Of a stretch of 64,000 nucleotides of DNA, positions 47,676 through 64,000 are shown in pieces (position 1 is the first letter of the stretch; each line of letters begins with the position of its first letter). A program made the position numbers and the translations under genes. The stretch is from a virus. Lineage: Duplodnaviria > Caudoviricetes. The DNA is taken from positions 192,001 through 256,000 of the IMG/VR virus record IMGVR_UViG_3300038679_000051, one strand, 5' to 3'. Below the pieces are notes generated by a model. That model did not search any database, was not told the origin of the DNA, and worked only from the letters and a program-made list of their open reading frames with translations.

Positions 47676-49010
47676 TCAATATTTATAAATAAATCGCAAT
47701 TTTTCTTTTCCCATAACTTTCTCATATTTTATTGAATTTGCGTATTCTTGTTCTTTCATGCCCATTTTAACAGCATGGTCCCACAATGTCTTCTTATGTA
47801 TTACATACCCATCTTTACCGACATACCAATAATCGGGTTTGACAGTTCCGTCTAATTGCCAATTTGAAGCTTTATAAATCGTTCCTGTATGATTGTGTGA
47901 TGTATCTGCGAATGTGATTAAATATTTTAAAGCTGGAAGTTCTGCTTCTATCATTTTCATGCATCTTGATATGAACCATGTAGCAAAATTCTTTTTTTGA
48001 TAGGCTGGATGAATGCAGAATCTTGATAATTCGCGTATTTCTGCCGTTTTTATACCAAGTTTATCAGCGGATTCTTTTCTAGTGATTGTAGAAAAAGCGC
48101 ATACGGCAATTAGATCATTACCTAATTTAACTCCATATCTAATGGAATTCTTACCAATCCTACCAAAGTAGTGATATTTTGCGACAAATTTCCTAGCTTC
48201 ATCATCAGTAATGTGAATGATTTCGACGTCGTCAAATGAGAAATCAATTGGGTTCCAGCCTGATCCAGTCCAATATTTAATCAAATCGACGATCCTGTCC
48301 TTGCAATGAAATTCATGCTCCCAAATGTGTTTTAATTTTAGATGTGGGAAATAACGTTCAAGATATGTGGCTTTTGCTTGATCATTTATCTTCGCCTTAT
48401 CCTTTTTGTGCCAATACTCGCCTTGGCATTCTATGATGAGGTTGTGATCTGGTAAGATGCAATCATAAGTCCAGAACCCAATGATTTTTTCAATTTCATA
48501 TTTAATCTTCAAATCATCTAAAATTGAATATAAAATCAATTGTATTGATGATGGCTTTCCTAATTGGTCATTTGCTAAATATGCCATCTTTTCTTTTACA
48601 GTATCATATTTCCCGATCATCTTTTTCACATATGATTGATCTTGCCATAGTTCTTTCATTCGTCGTTGTATTTTGTTCGATCTCAATAATGATGCTTCTC
48701 TAAAAGATCTCCCTTTAATGTTATATTGTTTAAAAGACTTGTTAATCGTTGCGATGGATACTCCGGCTTTTTTGGCTAATTCAGGTTTTGACATCCTTTT
48801 GTCATAATAATTAATTTTAAACCATTCTTCGGTTAAGAAATCAGGTAATCTTGGTTTGATTGGAATGCCAAATTTTTTTAATCTTCTATAAAGAAATTGA
48901 TCGTTGACGTTAAACTTTTTGACTATTTCTGAATATGGTGTCGTAGCATATAACTTTTCAAGACCTTCTTTCGTGTCAAATTCTGGTCCCATTATTTTGA
49001 AAAATTTCAT
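47676..49010 (-). CDS. HTH repeats + DUF559/Vsr-like endonuclease + Mom-like GNAT DNA-modification domain
   Basis: YDCILPDHNLIIECQGEYWH; KYHYFG, RELSRFCI, LITFADTSHNHTGTIYKASNW. Confidence 0.8.
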   Translation of the reverse strand: MKFFKIMGPEFDTKEGLEKLYATTPYSEIVKKFNVNDQFLYRRLKKFGIPIKPRLPDFLTEEWFKINYYDKRMSKPELAKKAGVSIATINKSFKQYNIKGRSFREASLLRSNKIQRRMKELWQDQSYVKKMIGKYDTVKEKMAYLANDQLGKPSSIQLILYSILDDLKIKYEIEKIIGFWTYDCILPDHNLIIECQGEYWHKKDKAKINDQAKATYLERYFPHLKLKHIWEHEFHCKDRIVDLIKYWTGSGWNPIDFSFDDVEIIHITDDEARKFVAKYHYFGRIGKNSIRYGVKLGNDLIAVCAFSTITRKESADKLGIKTAEIRELSRFCIHPAYQKKNFATWFISRCMKMIEAELPALKYLITFADTSHNHTGTIYKASNWQLDGTVKPDYWYVGKDGYVIHKKTLWDHAVKMGMKEQEYANSIKYEKVMGKEKLRFIYKY

Positions 49011-54137: not shown

Positions 54138-54479
54138 ATGTTTACGCTTAAATTTAATGTCTTAAACATGAAAGAGGTACAACAAAAGATGTTGAAAGCC
54201 GTTGAAGGACACATCTCGAACATGTCACCAATAATTGCGCAAATGGCGCGAGAAGAGATGGAGAAATTATCGAAATTTCCAATGTCAGTGAAGATGAATG
54301 GGAATGCAGCACAAATAAGTCCGATTACCAAGAATGAAAAGGAGTCGGAGGAAGCTGTCGATGAGGCTACCAAGGGGGCCAGTCCGCAATTTATGACGCA
54401 ATTTAAATTTAAAAATAAATCCTGGGTGACGCGAAGTCTCAAGATGAAAATGAAGGATGTCAAACATGGGAATTTATAA
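54138..54479 (+). CDS. Hypothetical protein
   Basis: 113 aa; GGGAGG RBS. Confidence 0.6.
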   Translation: MFTLKFNVLNMKEVQQKMLKAVEGHISNMSPIIAQMAREEMEKLSKFPMSVKMNGNAAQISPITKNEKESEEAVDEATKGASPQFMTQFKFKNKSWVTRSLKMKMKDVKHGNL

Positions 54480-55341
54480 TTTTGAATCAGTCAAACACGT
54501 AACCACACAAATGCCGAAGGCACAGTATGGTTACGTTGAACCAGATCCAATTATCCCGACTGCACCACCACAATTTCCTAGTATGGCTAAGAAAGTGAAC
54601 GTAGTTGGTGACCCCATAAATTCAGCACATTATGAAGATGTCATGCCGGTATATGAACCGGCATATCATTATCTCGACGAGGGAATGAAACGATATTTCA
54701 GTGAAATTAGGATACCGACTAGAGATTCCTATCGTAAAATGTCAGTGAAGATTGCTGGTGGAGATAAGTCAATATTGATATGGAAGAAAGAGTTCGAGAA
54801 TGAACACAGCCGCGTTTCACTGCCCGTAATGTCGATCAATCGAACCGGCGAACAATTCAATCCAATGAAATTCTCACCGCCATATATGCCGATCTCCAGA
54901 AAATTCGCGACGACGGACAAGACTAGATTGCAATTATGCTATCGTCCTACGCCGTCTTTGGTATCATATCAGATGACCATTTGGGCTGAACACAAACGTG
55001 ACGCCGAATATGCGCTATACGACATAAGGACTAGGTTTAATCCATTGGCAGAATTCGTGGCAGATGACAAACAGGCAATTGGTAACGTCATTTTGAAATA
55101 TGATGGCATGGTGGATTCTTCAGACAAGGAAGCTGCTGCCGCTGTAAGAGCCAACGTCCGATATGACATTAATCTGACAGCTGAGGCTTGGTTGTCGTTA
55201 CCCATAAGATTAATGCCATCGGTGCTCGGTCGAGTGACACAATTGGCTGAATTCAGTGGTGAGATCTTCGGCACATTATTTGGTAATAGTTTTCATGATT
55301 ATAAAGAAGCATTATTAGATGATGCTACGGCCACTCTATAA
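54466..55341 (+). CDS. Tail terminator/sheath stabilizer (T4 gp15-like)
   Basis: SLPVMSINR...PTPSLVSYQMTIW..RDAEYALYDIRTRFNP...RYDINL.AEAW. Confidence 0.7.
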   Translation: MGIYNFESVKHVTTQMPKAQYGYVEPDPIIPTAPPQFPSMAKKVNVVGDPINSAHYEDVMPVYEPAYHYLDEGMKRYFSEIRIPTRDSYRKMSVKIAGGDKSILIWKKEFENEHSRVSLPVMSINRTGEQFNPMKFSPPYMPISRKFATTDKTRLQLCYRPTPSLVSYQMTIWAEHKRDAEYALYDIRTRFNPLAEFVADDKQAIGNVILKYDGMVDSSDKEAAAAVRANVRYDINLTAEAWLSLPIRLMPSVLGRVTQLAEFSGEIFGTLFGNSFHDYKEALLDDATATL

Positions 55342-56294: not shown

Positions 56295-56639
56295 ACCACC
56301 AGGTGGTTTCAAAGGAAATGTCAACTTTCCTCATGGTTTCTATCACGTGTGACTAAAATGTTATGGAATGATAAACCATTAATCAAGAAAATCATTACGT
56401 TTGCTGATACGACATATGGTCATGAAGGCACAATTTATAAGGCAGCAAATTGGACGTTGATCGGACAAGTGAAGCCCGATTATTGGTATGTTGATGAACA
56501 TGGTAATCGATTCCACAAGAAAACAATATGGGATCATGCCTCAAAAATGAGTCAAAACGAAGAAGAATATGCCAATTTATATGGATTAAATAAAATTGTT
56601 GGTGGTATGAAACATAGATATGTTATTGATCGACCGTAG
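56295..56639 (+). pseudogene. N-terminally truncated Mom-like GNAT gene
   Basis: LSSWFLSRVTKML..IITFADTTYGHEGTIYKAANW..KPDYWYV..FHKKTIWDHA closely parallels the C-terminus of 47676-49010; in-frame TGA at 56292; no intact N-terminal half. Confidence 0.7.
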
Positions 56640-56736: not shown

Positions 56737-59610
56737 ATGCCAGTTTACCTCTCTCCGGGCGTATTTCCACGTGAAATCGATCTGAGCGTAATCCCGACTG
56801 CAGTTGGTCCGTTACGCCCAGCGTTTATTGGGACCGCAAAGAAAGGTCCAATGAATGCTCCAACATATGTGACTACGTCACAACAATTTATTGATACGTT
56901 CGGGACGCCATTCCCAGAATCGTTCATGGGGTATGCCGTCTTGGCCTACATGGAAGAGGGTAATCAGGCATACATCCTTCGTGCTGGCGTGGAATGTGAA
57001 GAAGGCCAGGTAGAAGAATTGGCCGACATTTGCATAGATACGAGCGGTGCCAATGGACATGGTTGGGGTCGAATACCAGTATTTACTGGCATTGATTATG
57101 GTAAAATTCGTCTGCGCAGCGTTTCAACTACTGAACCATTGGCATTCCACAGCGCGGCCATAACTGACATTTATTTTAGTGATATGGATGTAACGGTTCC
57201 TACTGCAGCGACTTTGTCATTTGTCGGCGGTGGTTTGTCGGATGCATATGCTGGCGCAATCGATGATTCTTATTTGCTTTTGATCACATCCGCACCAACG
57301 ACTGGTGCGATGATAGCCGGTGCAACATATGAAGTCATACGCAACAGCGATGGCGTGATCATTGCATCTGGCATGTTGTCTGAATCGGTCGTTGGGCAAT
57401 CAGATCCAATTACGTTAGTTGATGGCATGATTTGCAGCATAATCGTTACGTCTGGTGAATTGGACGTACAAGACAGCTTTTCTTTTAATGCCCGACCCGA
57501 CAATAGAAGTTTTGGATTTGCGGTTGATCTCTCACAATCACCGACGGTCAACATCCACAGTTTTAATGATGGCGAATCATTCACTGATGCCGATACGTTC
57601 GTCACTCGTTTCAATGCCATAATCGGCGGTTCTGAGGATTATAAAGCCGTTCATGAAGATGAAATCATTTACATTCGTTCTGACGTTGCGGGTGTCAACA
57701 TTCAAATGCAACATTCTGAAGCTTGGGCTTTGGAAGTTGGTCGCAGTTTGTATGCTTATGACATCCCACGATCATTCTTGATTTCTACTGATGCTGGTCC
57801 ATTCAACATCACTGCCAACAACAACCGAATCAAAATGACGGTAGTGGATGGCGAGCCGGTTCAAGCCACTACGGATTTAGAATTCTCAATCCCAATTGGT
57901 TTGAATTTGACGACCGCACAAGTAGCAGCTGGAATTCAGCCAGGCGGCATCAAGAATGGTTCAAGATTTTTCAATGCATACCCATTGGAAATATCAACTG
58001 GCGTCTATTACGTGGTGATTGAGACGGCAGTAGATCATTGTTATGGGGTATTGAAATTGCAAGCCAATCTGAGCAACGTTCGGACGTTGCGATTTGCTGA
58101 AGAATTGGAAATTCAATATCCATACTATCGGAATTTCCGGACTTATGGTGATAGTCGAGCCATGTTGCCGACGACTGGCGTCATTACGCCATCCGTGCCG
58201 CTCTCATGTGAAATCGACCCATTGTCCGATGATTGTGCACTTGATAGTGCATATTTTGCAGGCATTGTCGGCTGGTTTGTGGCGAAATCCCCCGGCACCT
58301 GGATCGACAGCTATACTCTTGATTTGACGCAGCGACTGACCGGAACCACCAGTGGTGGTTCCGTACAACAAGCTGGACATTTTGACATAACATTGCGTGA
58401 TTTGTCTGGCGTGACCGTTGATCGCGTTGAAGACGTTACATTTGATCCGCGTGATTCACGTTTCGTCGGAAACGTCATCAATGCAGGGTCTACGCTCGGC
58501 GGATTCAATGGCAATGCCTTCATCCAATGGGAATCTCGTCCGTCATTTTTGGCAAACGATCCGCTCGATCCAACGACGTTCGTGGTGCGCGTACCAAGCC
58601 CAGTCAATCGTGGTGCGTTCATTGATGCGGCCAATGGCATACCGACCGATCCAGCTTATTCTAGTGAATTGGATCGCGTGTTCATCGGCAATCCAGCCAA
58701 GGAAAGCGGCATTTATGCCTTCCAGAACCCAGAAGTATTCGACATCAATCTGTTGTTGGTGCCTGGTGCGTCATCTGGTGCGGTCATTGGTCAGATGTTG
58801 CAATTCTGTGAAGCACGTGGTGATGTGCTTTCGATCATTGATCCGCCTTTCGGATTGCGCCCACAACAGGTCGTCGATTGGCACAACGGCATGTTGTTCG
58901 CTGATCTACAGAACAGCATTAATAGTTCGTATGGTGCATTGTATTGGTCCTGGTTGCGGATCTTTGATCAATACAACGGCGGGGACATTTACATACCACC
59001 TAGCGGCCACGTCAGTTCAGTCTTCGCTCGTACGGCTCGTGTAGCGGAACAATGGTTTGCACCCGCTGGTCTTAATCGCGGTCATTTGCTCACGCCGACG
59101 GCAGTTGAATTCAATCCGACGATGGGTGAACGCGATTTGCTCTACGGTTCAGGAAACGCCGTCAACCCAATCGTCAATTTCGTGCAAGACGGCATCACGA
59201 TTTGGGGTCAACGGACGCTTCAACGCCGTCAGAGTGCGTTGGATCGCGTAAACGTCCGAATGTTGTTGATTTACATCAAGAAGAATTTGTCGAGAGCGTT
59301 ACGACAGTTCATCTTTGAGCCGAACGATAGAATTCTCTGGGCACAAGTCCGATCGGTCGTCAATCCATTCTTGGCCGACATTCAGGCACGGCGTGGTTTG
59401 CAAGCGTTCAAAGTGGTGTGCGACGAGACCAACAATACGCCTGAACGGATCGATCGCAATGAGTTGTGGATATCAGTCTTCCTCAAACCCACAAGAGCGG
59501 TGGAATTTATCGTGCTCAACCTTGTCATTCTCAGAACCGAGGCGAGCTTTTCGAGTGAAGAAGTCCTCCAAGCAGGCGGTGTAGTAACGCAACAACCAGC
59601 GTCTGTATAA
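56737..59610 (+). CDS. Tail sheath protein (T4 gp18-like)
   Basis: YLSPGVFPREID, PPSGHV, WFAPAGLNRG, VNPIV, WGQRTL, RVNVRML, FEPND, KPTRAVEFIVL. Confidence 0.97.
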   Translation: MPVYLSPGVFPREIDLSVIPTAVGPLRPAFIGTAKKGPMNAPTYVTTSQQFIDTFGTPFPESFMGYAVLAYMEEGNQAYILRAGVECEEGQVEELADICIDTSGANGHGWGRIPVFTGIDYGKIRLRSVSTTEPLAFHSAAITDIYFSDMDVTVPTAATLSFVGGGLSDAYAGAIDDSYLLLITSAPTTGAMIAGATYEVIRNSDGVIIASGMLSESVVGQSDPITLVDGMICSIIVTSGELDVQDSFSFNARPDNRSFGFAVDLSQSPTVNIHSFNDGESFTDADTFVTRFNAIIGGSEDYKAVHEDEIIYIRSDVAGVNIQMQHSEAWALEVGRSLYAYDIPRSFLISTDAGPFNITANNNRIKMTVVDGEPVQATTDLEFSIPIGLNLTTAQVAAGIQPGGIKNGSRFFNAYPLEISTGVYYVVIETAVDHCYGVLKLQANLSNVRTLRFAEELEIQYPYYRNFRTYGDSRAMLPTTGVITPSVPLSCEIDPLSDDCALDSAYFAGIVGWFVAKSPGTWIDSYTLDLTQRLTGTTSGGSVQQAGHFDITLRDLSGVTVDRVEDVTFDPRDSRFVGNVINAGSTLGGFNGNAFIQWESRPSFLANDPLDPTTFVVRVPSPVNRGAFIDAANGIPTDPAYSSELDRVFIGNPAKESGIYAFQNPEVFDINLLLVPGASSGAVIGQMLQFCEARGDVLSIIDPPFGLRPQQVVDWHNGMLFADLQNSINSSYGALYWSWLRIFDQYNGGDIYIPPSGHVSSVFARTARVAEQWFAPAGLNRGHLLTPTAVEFNPTMGERDLLYGSGNAVNPIVNFVQDGITIWGQRTLQRRQSALDRVNVRMLLIYIKKNLSRALRQFIFEPNDRILWAQVRSVVNPFLADIQARRGLQAFKVVCDETNNTPERIDRNELWISVFLKPTRAVEFIVLNLVILRTEASFSSEEVLQAGGVVTQQPASV

Positions 59611-59621
59611 CATATTTTTAG

Positions 59622-59664
59622 GATAAAGAAAAGGGGAGGCGATAAACCTCCCTTTTTCTTTATC
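59622..59664 (+). terminator. Intrinsic (probably bidirectional) terminator after sheath
   Basis: gataaagaaaaggggagg-cgataaa-cctccctttttctttatc inverted repeat with T-tract. Confidence 0.85.
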
Positions 59665-59700
59665 GGAATTATTGCAAAGCATACATAACAGGAGATTGGT

Positions 59701-60141
59701 ATGAAATTGAAGATGCTTTACGAAAATCTAAAGAAAGAGTATGATAAAGATAAACACGAAAATTTAGAGGCCATTGCAGAAATAGCAGGTGCATATATCA
59801 TTAAAAAAGACCGAGACGAATTTTATTCAAATAATCCGAGAGCATGGATGACTGATGATCCAAATTTAAAAGACGAGCGTGGTAATATCATAGCAAAATG
59901 GTATTTGGTGGATTTGGGTGAATCTGGTCCAAGACCAGAACCAGAGGCATGGTGGGCACACGAGAAATATCGATTGGGCGATCCACACAGGAAAAATGAC
60001 TTCTACATCAAATCATTGCAAGTTAATCCCCCTGATCCAATATATGACCGGGGACTTGGCGGATTTCAATTTTATCCTAAAGATTTCTGGAAACAAGAAG
60101 GAATAAAATTTGGATTTGGGAACGATACAATCAGTTTCTAA
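59701..60141 (+). CDS. Hypothetical protein with MKLKMLYE N-terminus
   Basis: 146 aa; AGGAG RBS. Confidence 0.7.
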   Translation: MKLKMLYENLKKEYDKDKHENLEAIAEIAGAYIIKKDRDEFYSNNPRAWMTDDPNLKDERGNIIAKWYLVDLGESGPRPEPEAWWAHEKYRLGDPHRKNDFYIKSLQVNPPDPIYDRGLGGFQFYPKDFWKQEGIKFGFGNDTISF

Positions 60142-60215
60142 GAGACGGCACATCCAACCACACAACCACATAAACAACAAAACATTTACGAGCTTGTGTG
60201 AGGTATTTAAATGAT

Positions 60216-60291
60216 GCGTGTGAAGCATAGTGATCGATGCGCCTGACTACCAGTTGGGAGAGGGGAGTGTAATTCTCGCCCACACGCTCCA
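60216..60291 (+). tRNA. Non-canonical tRNA-Gly-like element (anticodon ACC, encoded CCA)
   Basis: Acceptor GCGTGTG/CACACGC + T + CCA; D stem GCAT/ATGC; anticodon stem CCTGA/TTGGG with loop CTACCAG; T stem GG.GAG/CTC(G)CC with loop TGTAATT; 76 nt. Confidence 0.8.
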
Positions 60292-60495
60292 AAACGTCAT
60301 TTTGTGCAGCCTACTTGGTACGGAAGACCAAGTAAAAGCGCGGATAACAATTCCTAAGGGCGAAACAGTGAACAGTGCAGGCCCGCGACGAAGGAAAGTC
60401 GGCAACTAAACCCCTTCACCCGGTGGGCAGGAACATTTACCGTAAGTCAAACCATTGCGGACTTGTTGAAACCGGGTAAATTTTTAAATAGGGGT
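60292..60495 (+). ncRNA. Candidate structured non-coding RNA downstream of tRNA-like element
   Basis: GC-rich ORF-free gap with hairpins tacttggt/accaagta, cgac/gtcg and nested acccggt/accgggt enclosing aagtc/gactt. Confidence 0.4.
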
Positions 60496-60500
60496 GCAAA

Positions 60501-60776
60501 ATGCCATTATTTGTCGATTTAGAAGGTGTGATGGGCGGAGAATTAGAGGGACCGCTTGTGGGCACAGTCCAACAGGCAATGACGTCTTTAAAGACATCTC
60601 GGATTGTCAGTGGGGCTGGCGATAATGGGGCATGGCACGTTTATGTTCGAGACGATGACAAGTATGTTTGTTGTTTTTATCGTCACTTTACAAAAATAAA
60701 CGAAATGACTTTTACATCAAAAACTCAAGTGAGAATGTGGTTGCGGGAATGGTTGCCGAGAATACAGCACCAATAA
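60501..60776 (+). CDS. Hypothetical protein
   Basis: 91 aa; GGGGTG RBS. Confidence 0.6.
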   Translation: MPLFVDLEGVMGGELEGPLVGTVQQAMTSLKTSRIVSGAGDNGAWHVYVRDDDKYVCCFYRHFTKINEMTFTSKTQVRMWLREWLPRIQHQ

Positions 60777-60795
60777 CTTGGTGGGGAGGGCACAA

Positions 60796-61014
60796 ATGTT
60801 CAGCATAAGAGAGAAGAGAGAAATTTCGGATGCCGTGCAAAAGATTCTGCGAGCAACAAATCATCCGGAATTGCCATCGGGTGAGATTCAGTTTCATTTA
60901 CATGTAGTTGGTGCAGAATCATGGTCATGGGCGGACATTCTCAATAATGGGGCGGTGGTAACGCCTGGACGCAATCCATGGAATGAATCGCAAGATAAGG
61001 AAGCAGTGATATGA
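60796..61014 (+). CDS. Hypothetical protein
   Basis: 72 aa; GGGAGG RBS. Confidence 0.65.
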   Translation: MFSIREKREISDAVQKILRATNHPELPSGEIQFHLHVVGAESWSWADILNNGAVVTPGRNPWNESQDKEAVI

Positions 61015-61472
61015 TATCAGTTTCTATTAAGAACATGCTGGATACCAAAAATGTCACAAATCTTGTTGGGAACATTATAAAAAATACGATATTTAGCATG
61101 GGCGTTGATACGAACAGCAGTCCTATATCCGGTCAATTCAAAGACGTGCAGAGAAATTTATTGGTGGACATTGATAAGGATGATCTTGACAATTTAATGT
61201 CATTAGCCGTCAGACAATATAGCGAGACTGAAGGTGAGATTATGGAAAAATTCCTGCGATTCGACCGAAACGTTGCTGCTGTAAAAGGATATATACCAAG
61301 ACAAAAAGTCATTGAATCTTTTTGTGTATTGCTGATATATAATCGCATCAGAGAAGAAATCTGCTCGGCGGTAATGTCGAATACGATCCATGATGTGCAT
61401 GTTCCAATTGAATTACCAAGATCAGCAGAATGTGTACAATTCAATCTTGTGCTAGCTGAAACAGGCAATTGA
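61011..61472 (+). CDS. Hypothetical protein
   Basis: 153 aa; ATGA coupling. Confidence 0.6.
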   Translation: MISVSIKNMLDTKNVTNLVGNIIKNTIFSMGVDTNSSPISGQFKDVQRNLLVDIDKDDLDNLMSLAVRQYSETEGEIMEKFLRFDRNVAAVKGYIPRQKVIESFCVLLIYNRIREEICSAVMSNTIHDVHVPIELPRSAECVQFNLVLAETGN

Positions 61473-61502
61473 CTAGAAATGATGTGATGATAAAAAAGAG
61501 AC

Positions 61503-61757
61503 ATGAGATACCGCGTCGATTTCAGCAGATTGGCTAGGACGGAAGATGAAGTCATGAAACATAAATTAGTCAGGGAATTCGTAGATGCATTATTCCAAAC
61601 GTATAATCTGAATCGTAAGGAACATCTTCCAGATGGACATATATTGGATGAAATATTCATCGAAGAGGATCGTGATCTATCGGGGATGGACATAATGAAC
61701 GAGCATGTGATTCCGGCATATCCTGAGGCGAAATTGCAATCATGGGATAAATGGTAA
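61503..61757 (+). CDS. Hypothetical protein
   Basis: 84-aa ORF. Confidence 0.55.
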   Translation: MRYRVDFSRLARTEDEVMKHKLVREFVDALFQTYNLNRKEHLPDGHILDEIFIEEDRDLSGMDIMNEHVIPAYPEAKLQSWDKW

Positions 61758-62116
61758 TGATCAAGATGATAGTTGCTGGCAGCAGGGCGTTCGTTGATTA
61801 TGGATTTCTTAAAAAACAATTAGATGAATTCCTTTCATGTTTGTCAGATTCAGACGTTACAATAATATCTGGAATGGCTAAGGGTGCGGACATACTTGCT
61901 GTTAGATATGCCGAGGAACATCATTTACCAATCATCAAAATGCCCGCTGATTGGATTAAACATGGCAGAAGTGCAGGATATAATAGAAATTTAGAAATGG
62001 CCAAAATTGCCACACATTTAGTGGCGTTTTGGAACGGCAAATCACGGGGCACGAAGCATATGATCGACATTGCCGTTTTAAAGGGGTTGACGACTAAAGT
62101 AATCATCGTACCCTGA
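61751..62116 (+). CDS. YspA-like SLOG family protein (DUF2493-type)
   Basis: IVAGSRAF, ISGMAKGADILA, AGYNRNLEMA, AFWNGKSRGTKHMI. Confidence 0.9.
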   Translation: MVMIKMIVAGSRAFVDYGFLKKQLDEFLSCLSDSDVTIISGMAKGADILAVRYAEEHHLPIIKMPADWIKHGRSAGYNRNLEMAKIATHLVAFWNGKSRGTKHMIDIAVLKGLTTKVIIVP

Positions 62117-62196
62117 TGTATGACGATGCGTGAAGCATAGGGATGTATTTAATGCTGGGGTGGGTATGCCTACGCTTCATTTGAAGAAAGGAGGAG

Positions 62197-62448
62197 ATGA
62201 TGAATGCTGTTGATGAAATACAGAAAAGAATAATTCTGACGAAAATTAGAAAGATGCTTGATGAAAAATTGAAGTTAGAAATAACTGAGATGACTGAGAC
62301 AAAGAAGATAGAACAGCAGATAAACCAAGCTGTAACGTTTTTTAGTGAGAAATATCCGCAAGTTGAATTTAAGGTTCAGACCGACACTGTCGATGGGAAA
62401 CTGCAATATACGATAGATATATGGTTAGAAACTGAGACGATCGATTAA
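62197..62448 (+). CDS. Hypothetical protein
   Basis: 83 aa; AAGGAGG RBS. Confidence 0.6.
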   Translation: MMNAVDEIQKRIILTKIRKMLDEKLKLEITEMTETKKIEQQINQAVTFFSEKYPQVEFKVQTDTVDGKLQYTIDIWLETETID

Positions 62449-62990
62449 CGCACCCTGATGTGTTTTTTCAAACCTTCAGCAGTTGCGCCAGGCGTCAAGA
62501 CTAAGCTGATCGGCATCGTCCACCAATTTCCAACTTCTTCTACAGTGATGGTTTCGTCGGCCAATTCATCTTCATCGACGTCAGCTAATTCTTCATTTAA
62601 GAAATCAACAATGTTGCTCAATTCATTGTCGGTAAATTTCGTCATCTGAAAATTATGATCTTGCACTCGTATCCATCCCATATGATCCATCGCGTAATCA
62701 CGTGGGTCCGACCCGTCTTTCAACCATTCTATGGCTTCCTCATTTGCATCATTTTGACGCAACCATGCGATGGCCTCATCAGACAACGGTGTCATTATTT
62801 CCATTTGTGGTGCCGATGCATCCTCAAAAGCGCTGATACCTAAGGCCGCTTCAAATGCCGCCATAGCATGATTATAATCACCTATGTCGCCGTCGGCAAA
62901 CGTTGCCATGCCACTGTCGTCAATCCACCATTCGCCCCTCAACGACGATTCATTGAGAATGATTGGTTTGTATAATCTAGTGATCTTCAT
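62445..62990 (-). CDS. Acidic hypothetical protein, possible internal head protein
   Basis: MKITRLYKPIILNES N-terminus; 181 aa. Confidence 0.65.
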   Translation of the reverse strand: MKITRLYKPIILNESSLRGEWWIDDSGMATFADGDIGDYNHAMAAFEAALGISAFEDASAPQMEIMTPLSDEAIAWLRQNDANEEAIEWLKDGSDPRDYAMDHMGWIRVQDHNFQMTKFTDNELSNIVDFLNEELADVDEDELADETITVEEVGNWWTMPISLVLTPGATAEGLKKHIRVR

Positions 62991-63061
62991 ATGGTATTTT
63001 TTGTTCGTATTTTAATGATTTTTCGTCATTACAATTTCCGTCAAAGATATTACAGACCAGA

Positions 63062-63601
63062 ATGGAGGATTTAAACATGCCAGGATTCACGATTCAGGGT
63101 GGTGAAAACGATGGTGGCCAAATAGTCAGCAATACGGTTGAAACCCGTAGAAATCACCGTTGGCGATGGACGTCAATGGGTAATGCCGTCCAGCCGGACG
63201 TTCTGATTTTGTTGCAGAAATGTCAGCGTCCGAAATTTACTAACGCTGAACCCGAATTGCATCACAATCAAGAAGTAGCCTATTTCATCGGCAAACAAAC
63301 ATGGGATCCGATTGAGATGGCATTCTACGATGCCGAACAACAACCAGATTGTTCAAGAGAAATCTGGAAATGGTTGAAGATTGGTAATTTACTCGATCAA
63401 GCAAACGTCAGCATACCGAAAACGTATAAGAAACGTGGACAGTTGGATATGGTGGATGGTAAAGGCAGCGAAACCGAAACGTGGTTCGTCCATGGTGCAT
63501 GGCCGAAAGAAGTCAGTTATTCTGAGAACGATTATACGAATACTGAAATTGCACTAATCACGGTAAGTCTGCGCTATGATCGTGCAGAAAAAACGAAATA
63601 A
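63062..63601 (+). CDS. Tail tube protein (T4 gp19-like)
   Basis: RWRW..QRPKF..YFIGKQTWDPIEMAFYD..YKKRGQLDMVDG..W.VHGAWP..LRYDRA. Confidence 0.9.
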   Translation: MEDLNMPGFTIQGGENDGGQIVSNTVETRRNHRWRWTSMGNAVQPDVLILLQKCQRPKFTNAEPELHHNQEVAYFIGKQTWDPIEMAFYDAEQQPDCSREIWKWLKIGNLLDQANVSIPKTYKKRGQLDMVDGKGSETETWFVHGAWPKEVSYSENDYTNTEIALITVSLRYDRAEKTK

Positions 63602-63647: not shown

Positions 63648-64000
63648 ATGATCGATTGGAATAAAACTAAACAAAAATTTGGATTGACTGAATCTATCGT
63701 AACCAGTAAATCACTGGTCGTAGTAGTATGTGATGAATGTAAATCAGAACGAGTCATAAAATATGTTGGACATAAAACCATCATCAAAGCCCATGGTAAT
63801 TCATTGTGTTCGTCGTGTCGTAGTAAAAGCATAAGAGTGATTCACGCTGAGGCATTTACTAAATCAGATGTGAAACGAGCGGAGACGTTGTCTAGAACAT
63901 ATAAAAAGAAATGGCAGGATAAGAAATATAGGAAGACACAACATGAAATAAGGAATAATGATTATCGTTCTAAGATCAGTAATGCATCTAAACAATGTTG
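63648..64000 (+). CDS. Homing-endonuclease-like protein, N-terminal part (3' truncated by window), not in ORF track
   Basis: MIDWNKT..VVVVCDEC..LCSSC..KKKWQDKKY..SKISNASK; same basic repeats as 19025 and 47676 genes. Confidence 0.6.
   Translation, partial: MIDWNKTKQKFGLTESIVTSKSLVVVVCDECKSERVIKYVGHKTIIKAHGNSLCSSCRSKSIRVIHAEAFTKSDVKRAETLSRTYKKKWQDKKYRKTQHEIRNNDYRSKISNASKQC

Follow-up and report, generated by a model that had tools for sequence, protein, structure and literature searches.

A free-standing tRNA-Gly look-alike in a jumbo phage, putative member of a Mom-linked RNA family and candidate glycyl donor for DNA hypermodification

In the window analyzed here, a stretch of 64,000 nucleotides of jumbo myophage DNA, we describe a 76-nt tRNA-Gly-like RNA gene (60216..60291, + strand) that folds as a cloverleaf, is selectively conserved, carries the full set of glycine identity elements, and is genetically linked to Mom-family genes. 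Judging from sequence comparisons, the RNA is probably a trans-acting glycyl donor for Mom, charged by glycyl-tRNA synthetase (GlyRS) and poorly used by translation; what this reading proposes is that the RNA is transcribed and processed, is charged, escapes translation, and is used by Mom. Only in work of 2023-2026 did it become clear that Mom depends on Gly-tRNAGly, and the donor there was host tRNA. In dsDNA, Mu Mom modifies adenine at N6 with glycine taken from Gly-tRNAGly (Silva et al., Nat Commun 2026, PMC13219725). All three Escherichia coli tRNAGly isoacceptors serve in this reaction while mischarged Gly-tRNAAla does not, recognition of the tRNA probably takes place near the acceptor end, and two residues of the enzyme, R111 and S124, are essential (PMC13219725).

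Results

The source virus is a jumbo myophage, represented by an IMG/VR virus record of 151 kb (41% complete by estimate), of which the window is the minus strand. Groundwater and coal metagenomes also contain the window DNA, and its copies in other samples (L068, L069, and runs X1-X5) are identical, with zero variation. The structural genes include those for a gp15-like protein (54457-55341), a 957-aa tail sheath protein (56737-59610), and a gp19-like tube protein (63062-63601). Of 67 related loci, most have the tube gene immediately 3' of the sheath gene; here a 3.4-kb island of orphan ORFs (59611-63061) stands between them, and the tRNA-like RNA sits in a 359-nt gap (60142-60500) of that island. 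Among the 67 loci with related sheath genes no homologues of the island ORFs were found, and a synteny search of the same loci found no tRNA and no DNA resembling the ~360-nt gap. A few relatives carry other sheath-tube inserts, one of them (L009) with a Mom gene. The island ORFs match no Pfam or PHROG family apart from one SLOG domain, that of a 121-aa YAcAr/SLOG (YspA-like, DprA-related) protein at 61751-62116 (+). Contigs from RNA run X6 cover the sheath gene and neighboring ORFs and not 60004-60756, and are uninformative on expression. Complete relatives (370-395 kb) have 42-47 tRNA genes each; in the 151-kb record ARAGORN at default settings finds none. The tRNAs of the relatives (L100-L113; G001, G002, G005) include A34 anticodons, Phe(AAA) and Leu(AAG), as well as the suppressor-type anticodons CUA and UCA, which hint at stop-codon reading in the lineage. 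The commonest glycine codon of the phage is GGT (44.5%). Long collagen-like GXY repeat genes occur outside the window, on contig C1 of G000 at 12.6-16.1 kb and ~55 kb.

Direct reading of 60216-60291 recovers every detail of the cloverleaf described in a first-pass annotation of this DNA, and conservation places the bounds of the gene at G1 and A76. All of its parts lie on the + strand. The acceptor stem (5' strand 60216..60222, GCGTGTG; 3' strand 60281-60287, CACACGC) consists of seven Watson-Crick pairs, starting G-C, C-G, G-C, and its G1, C2, and G3 are invariant in the aligned family; T73 (60288) and an encoded CCA (60289-60291) complete the end. Positions 8 and 9 are A8 and A9. The D arm (60225..60240) combines a 4-bp stem (GCAT/ATGC) with an 8-nt loop, AGTGATCG, from which the GG dinucleotide is absent. 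In the anticodon arm (60242..60258) a 5-bp stem (CCTGA/TTGGG), made of three Watson-Crick and two G-U pairs, carries the loop CTACCAG with the anticodon ACC (A34, C35, and C36; 60249..60251). The T arm (60263..60280) reads GGGAG-TGTAATT-CTC(G)CC, and its bulged G (60278) falls between pairs 50-64 and 51-63; EF-Tu reads the T-stem pairs 49-65, 50-64, and 51-63 (PMC3239215). The elbow nucleotides U8, G18-G19, and T54-Psi55-C56 are kept neither here (A8, AGTGATCG, and TGTAATT instead) nor in the ortholog described below, whereas the bacterial GlyRS determinants G1-C72, C2-G71, G3-C70, U73, C35, and C36, taken from PMC7826273, are all present. The anticodon loop has the usual-looking frame of seven nucleotides (CUACCAG), with U33 and A37 kept, but it also has A34, never observed in tRNA-Gly (PMC7293025), and additional pairing is possible inside it (C32-G38 and U33-A37). 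Since bacterial tRNA-Gly normally allow a 32-38 pair (PMC7293025), that pair alone proves nothing. The minimum-energy fold is the cloverleaf itself (-27.1 kcal/mol, z -1.8).

In its acceptor stem the RNA is similar to tRNA-Gly(UCC) of a related jumbo phage. An origin from tRNA-Arg(ACG), the best pairwise match, with CCTGACTAC in common, was dropped in favor of the glycine identity set and the family described below. We also set aside as coincidence the recurrence in the genome of the anticodon-arm 12-mer CCTGACTACCAG, which arises because the collagen-like GXY repeat, on the opposite strand, contains its reverse complement.

The low detector score anticipated for such an RNA was obtained: ARAGORN at default settings does not report it, and the Rfam tRNA model (RF00005) gives it 18.3 bits against a gathering cut-off of 29, and thus no match at that threshold, while the genuine tRNAs of the lineage reach 45-77 bits. 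At an 80% threshold ARAGORN does list the RNA, among 33 junk calls in the window. The Rfam E-value of 1.2 spans 1.4 kb and 4227 families; for the tRNA model alone it corresponds to ~0.013 per 64 kb. From the base composition of the window, counting both strands, such a cloverleaf alone is expected by chance 3e-4 times per 64 kb, 4e-7 times with U33, R37, and CCA, and ~5e-12 times when the glycine identity set is added. This composition-based estimate, together with the Rfam tRNA match, excludes a chance origin.

An ortholog at L131:4363-4438 was found at 94 bits with a covariance model built from the single sequence. The contig that carries it (L131, 11.3 kb) has the closest available relative of the sheath protein, 67% identical at the amino acid level over the part present. 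Of the 76 positions 12 differ between the two RNAs, with 9 of the differences in stems, and the covariation that the first-pass annotation had proposed to look for among homologues is evident: all 21 pairs survive, four of them changed on both sides. From the window to L131, pair 4-69 goes from U-A to C-G, 5-68 from G-C to C-G, 7-66 from G-C to A-U, and 29-41 from U-G to G-C, while 30-40 changes on one side only, from G-U to A-U. With nine random stem changes the probability of keeping every pair is 1.8e-5. Change is sparser in loops (3 of 34 positions) than in stems (9 of 42). The ortholog retains the glycine identity set, A8 and A9, CUACCAG, the variable-region AGAG, U73, and the encoded CCA, and likewise the T loop (UGUrAUU), the bulged G, and a D loop without GG (AGAGAACG). 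The acceptor stem and C35-C36, whose conservation was central to the first-pass reading, are thus kept in the ortholog, and in the 11-member alignment presented below they are invariant.

DNA identity between the window and L131 is 84% over the RNA and 64-67% over neighboring homologous genes. The flanks of the RNA are unrelated (the 200 nt on its 3' side are unconserved in L131), and it is the sole DNA-similar stretch outside the structural genes, so the conserved unit is the 76-nt RNA itself. In L131 it stands at a different place of the genome, directly 3' of a 69-codon ORF, and its abutting the stop codon suggests cotranscription and processing. Two features that the first-pass annotation had read beside the cloverleaf fared less well. 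The string GTATTTAA is indeed present 5 nt before G1, but its reading as a -10 promoter element finds no support: it does not recur in the window, gives no match in a promoter scan, and is unconserved upstream of the L131 ortholog. The overlapping frame SIVIDAPDYQ..., likened there to the tails of Mom-like proteins, resembles neither Mom tails nor anything else in the genome, has no PHROG match, and is not conserved past the RNA in L131.

Exact-pattern scans of viral and metagenome contigs for close orthologs returned the L131 contig only, and the single-sequence model (R1), run on 25 related records, found ordinary tRNAs only. Related phages do contain subthreshold tRNA relics, in which the T arm is perfect and the rest broken. 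A shortened tRNA-like element at L122:2054-2112 (-), ~0.5 kb from a tRNA-Asp, has the T loop UGUAAUC, and thus shares the UGUAAU variant with the window RNA. As the differences from L131 preserve pairs, the odd features are themselves kept, and the flanks are unrelated, a pseudogene is ruled out; on this comparative evidence the element is best described as an RNA under selection, neither a chance product nor a decaying pseudogene.

Three loci with a Mom-family domain (Pfam PF25680) lie within 13 kb of the RNA. A 444-aa fusion (47676..49010, - strand) joins an HTH-like N-terminus and a DUF559-like nuclease to a Mom-family GNAT (Pfam Mom, 1.5e-28), and presumably uses the RNA. Shortly before the sheath gene, where L131 has a full Mom of 281 aa, stands a 93-aa Mom-family remnant (56358..56639, +; Pfam Mom 1.6e-13, profile positions 98-182 only). 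The third gene, for a 595-aa protein with a zinc ribbon, W..YR.K repeats, a nuclease-like region, and a Mom-family GNAT, begins at 63648 (+) and runs past the end of the window (63648..64000). The nearest Mom genes on the same strand are 3.36 kb downstream and 3.58 kb upstream of the RNA, with none within ~300 nt; L131 also has three Mom loci, one of which ends 0.7 kb before its RNA. Both the 444-aa and the 595-aa protein align to the Mu Mom structure 8bv8. By our reading of the alignments, equivalents of R111 and S124 appear to be kept in both full-length Moms (the invariant R of ELxR, and Ser or Thr), an assignment that takes chain and Mu numbering to be nine apart. Fusion of the Mom GNAT behind a DUF559/Vsr-like nuclease and varied DNA-binding modules is seen in the window and in L123-L186; each jumbo-phage contig has 3-4 copies, which sit between conserved genes much as homing elements do.

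The association with Mom was approached from both sides. In a Mom-first survey, ARAGORN and a second covariance model (R2) were run on 76 viral loci of this Mom subfamily and on 79 whose Mom stands alone. Gly-type tRNAs lie 0-70 nt from the Mom match in L128, L190/191, L194/196, L204, L205, L220, L232, and L245/266; at ~140 of the 155 loci there is no look-alike RNA within 3-10 kb, so Mom does not need one. The Mom loci of the cultured phages LP-064 and Alsa_1 lack it as well, and model R2 gave only matches of at most 64 bits in 26 records of Mom-bearing or related jumbo phages. Only a handful of non-Gly tRNAs come equally near to Mom, namely an Arg tRNA in L272 and, within a tRNA cluster of L193, those for Thr and Arg. 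An encoded GCG...CGC-U-CCA end is common to six of the Gly-type RNAs (L194, L196, L204, L205, L220, and L232). Their T arm reads GGCGG-TTCAATT-CCG(A)CC (in L220 the loop is TGCAATT), its bulged purine stands at the place of the bulged G of the window RNA, and the anticodon region, Y-RUUCCA-R, yields an 8-nt or a 6-nt loop. More generally, family members have a TTCRATT loop in this arm. Against it, the T stem of the window RNA differs by double-sided changes at two pairs, with the bulge retained. The L128 RNA comes closer to that of the window, with the same CUACCAG loop, a T loop starting in UG, and a D loop without GG. This tRNA-Gly(ACC) (L128:10554-10627, -) overlaps, in antisense, the final 16 codons of a Mom fusion ORF (653 aa); on its own strand, the gene directly 5' of it encodes a GDP-mannose 4,6-dehydratase. 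Across the family G55 accompanies the loss of the D-loop GG (window, L131, L128, and L220), while members with U55 keep GG; the joint occurrence in four sequences suggests that the elbow was remodeled as a unit. With G55 and U56, the T loop of the window RNA is more degenerate than those of the rest of the Mom-linked family.

In an alignment of 11 Mom-linked members G1-C72, C2-G71, G3-C70, U73, C35, and C36 are invariant, 98% of the cells pair, and 17 of the 21 pairs have changed on both sides. The converse, RNA-first search scanned 185,579 prokaryote genomes for a pattern of bulged T arm plus CGCT that made no use of Mom. It returned 16 matches, against ~0.3 expected from base counts, and 15 of these are cloverleaves; 13 of the 15 have a same-strand Mom domain within 0-254 nt and one further cloverleaf sits at a contig end. 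The contigs belong to metagenome-assembled genomes (MAGs) of many phyla. As the pattern fixes the T arm and the bulged A, the 15 MAG copies are not independent evidence for the bulge; the recovery of Mom neighbors by an RNA-only pattern makes the Mom association a property of the RNA family. Most family RNAs lie 0-100 nt from a Mom start or stop, on the same strand. In L194 (6127-6528, 7227-7859) the module of Mom and RNA stands between a gene for DUF1599 ("nucleotide modification associated domain 1") and one for sigma-70 region 4, with a Toprim gene upstream. The anticodon loops of the RNA-first copies have 3-8 nt, mostly with ACCA or UUCCA. The family does not look like decoders, because ordinary decoding is closed to such loops, even though C35-C36 and the acceptor determinants are maintained. 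One copy, L303:1725-1797, has the bulged T arm and the GCG/CGC-U-CCA ends, but its anticodon arm is 6 bp with a UUU triloop, and C35-C36 are missing, a state hard to square with charging that depends on the anticodon. Taken together, the alignments place the window RNA as an apparent member, divergent and free-standing, of a family of tRNA-Gly look-alikes that travels with Mom.

Discussion

How might such an RNA serve Mom? We propose that it is transcribed with the late genes of the + strand and trimmed to G1 and the encoded CCA, and that the host glycyl-tRNA synthetase, whose determinants (G1-C72, C2-G71, G3-C70, U73, C35, and C36) are kept, would charge it. The T-stem bulge, the remodeled D/T-loop elbow, and the self-closing loop with A34 would make it a poor client of EF-Tu and of the ribosome; because of this the charged RNA would constitute a private glycyl pool, from which the Mom-type domains of the phage would take the glycyl group for adenine hypermodification of phage DNA, as Mu Mom does. 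The suggestion of the first-pass annotation that this is a dedicated glycyl carrier and no pseudogene gains from the ortholog, from the Mom-linked family, and from the published biochemistry of Mom, with the carrier role itself a prediction from sequence. The free-standing place of the RNA, both in the window and in L131, favors action in trans and speaks against its being a part of the mom mRNA. The same fact is also a counterpoint, as most family members are adjacent to Mom and this one is not (3.36 kb here, 0.7 kb in L131).

Several other readings deserve attention. That the RNA is a working translational tRNA-Gly(ACC), perhaps with I34, reading GGU and GGC in the glycine-rich genes of the phage, its Mom link being a drain on Gly-tRNA or a coincidence, seems unlikely to us. 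Decoding keeps some probability given the 7-nt loop with U33 and A37 and the standing of GGT as the main glycine codon (44.5%), to which may be added the full identity set, the encoded CCA, the collagen-like GXY genes, the other A34 anticodons among the 42-47 tRNAs of the relatives, and an A19 and U56 that could restore the G19-C56 elbow pair. Yet U8, G19, U55, and C56 are replaced and the T stem has a purine bulge, all of it conserved in the ortholog; the Rfam score is 18 bits, where real tRNAs of the lineage have 45-77; A34 has never been seen in tRNA-Gly (PMC7293025); and the loops of family relatives run from 3 to 8 nt. Also improbable is a structured RNA tied to Mom in some role other than donor, be it as regulator of expression or processing signal, as inhibitor or scaffold of Mom, or as decoy for host enzymes that attack tRNA-Gly. 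The same-strand position of most members, 0-100 nt from the start or stop of Mom, is cis-like, one member (L303) has lost both C35 and C36, and toxins such as FaRel2 are reported to target the acceptor ends of tRNA-Gly. A cis role fits poorly with the window and L131 copies, free-standing at 0.7-3.4 kb from Mom among unrelated flanks as trans action would have it, and a role without charging leaves aside that what charging needs (G1-G3/C70-C72, U73, C35, and C36) is invariant in the 11-member alignment, with CCA in most members.

Decay and accident fare worse. A tRNA-Gly pseudogene would not be out of place in a tRNA-rich lineage whose genomes each hold several subthreshold relics, and the RNA does fall below the ARAGORN and Rfam thresholds; however, none of the nine stem differences from the ortholog breaks a pair (P 1.8e-5), conservation extends to the odd features, and the relics of the relatives show the opposite pattern, with an intact T arm and the rest broken, so that we regard this origin as very improbable. 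Least credible of all, to the point of being almost negligible, is a cloverleaf arisen by chance or forming part of a small coding gene. A 59-codon ORF (60230-60409) does overlap the RNA, and ARAGORN at a loose threshold makes 33 such calls in the window, but the chance estimate is at most 4e-7 per window, an ortholog and a family exist, and the 59-aa ORF has no homolog, was called by neither source's gene finder, and is unconserved in L131.

Returning to the glycyl donor, a wider proposal would be that non-decoding, GlyRS-chargeable tRNA-Gly mimics co-evolve with Mom GNATs, supply glycine for DNA hypermodification, and evade EF-Tu and the ribosome, the present RNA being a free-standing version that acts in trans for several nuclease-Mom fusions. 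On the sequences compared, we hold the chances of this wider proposal to be evenly balanced. If such a class is indeed widespread, it would provide the first case of a viral tRNA given over to DNA chemistry instead of translation. It would also be the second natural tRNA withdrawn from translation for a transferase, after the staphylococcal cell-wall tRNAs, and the T-stem bulge and the acceptor end would be features that Mom and EF-Tu may read. A simple annotation rule would be gained too, because tRNA finders miss or mislabel the look-alike genes.

Four known systems frame the finding. Canonical tRNA-Gly (RF00005) shares with it the cloverleaf, the GCG/CGC acceptor start, U73, CCA, and C35-C36; A8, G55, U56, the missing G18-G19, the bulged T stem, A34, and the subthreshold Rfam and ARAGORN scores set the window RNA apart. 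As in Mu, there is a Mom GNAT domain with apparent R111 and S124 equivalents, and the acceptor end of tRNA-Gly is the presumed co-substrate. Mu lacks a tRNA gene and draws on all host isoacceptors; the present phage, by contrast, supplies an atypical RNA itself, and its Mom is fused to nuclease and DNA-binding modules and occurs at three loci. Phage-encoded tRNAs are unmentioned in the Mom paper (PMC13219725) and its preprint, and our literature search found no paper linking them to Mom.

The proposed mechanism mirrors that of the nonproteogenic tRNAGly of Staphylococcus aureus. Those tRNAs, which diverge in the D and T arms, are weak ligands of EF-Tu and the preferred substrates of FmhB, acting in FmhB/FemAB pentaglycine synthesis as donors to a GNAT-fold aminoacyl-transferase (PMC7826273); their lineage occurs only in staphylococci (PMC7826273). 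They too keep the GlyRS determinants G1-C72, C2-G71, U73, C35, and C36. They are, however, chromosomal, regular cloverleaves with 7-nt UCC loops, and their acceptor is the peptidoglycan precursor, whereas the window RNA, set apart from them here by descriptions, is viral, has a T-stem bulge and A34, and presumably serves DNA as the acceptor. Nearest of all is a tRNA-Gly-like "pseudo-tRNA" at the start of mom homologues in the ssrA genomic islands of Dehalococcoides (McMurdie et al. 2011, PMC3146451), which pipelines label as pseudo-tRNA and to which the 2011 paper assigned no function (PMC3146451); the glycyl-donor reading, if true, would explain an RNA unexplained since then. Both are conserved 76-nt tRNA-Gly-like cloverleaves tied to a Mom gene and mislabeled or missed by tRNA finders, and the Mom-adjacent family found here fits the account of the Dehalococcoides RNA, the two being compared by description only. 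The latter is contained in, or abuts, the mom frame of an integrative island, while the window RNA is free-standing, 0.7-3.4 kb from Mom genes (counting L131), and differs from it in the anticodon ACC, the T loop UGUAAUU, and the lack of the D-loop GG. What is new, then, is the divergent, free-standing jumbo-phage variant, with its anticodon ACC, degenerate elbow, and covariation with an ortholog, and, for the family as a whole, the evidence of a common T-stem bulge, of non-decoding loops, and of an RNA-first test of linkage to Mom.
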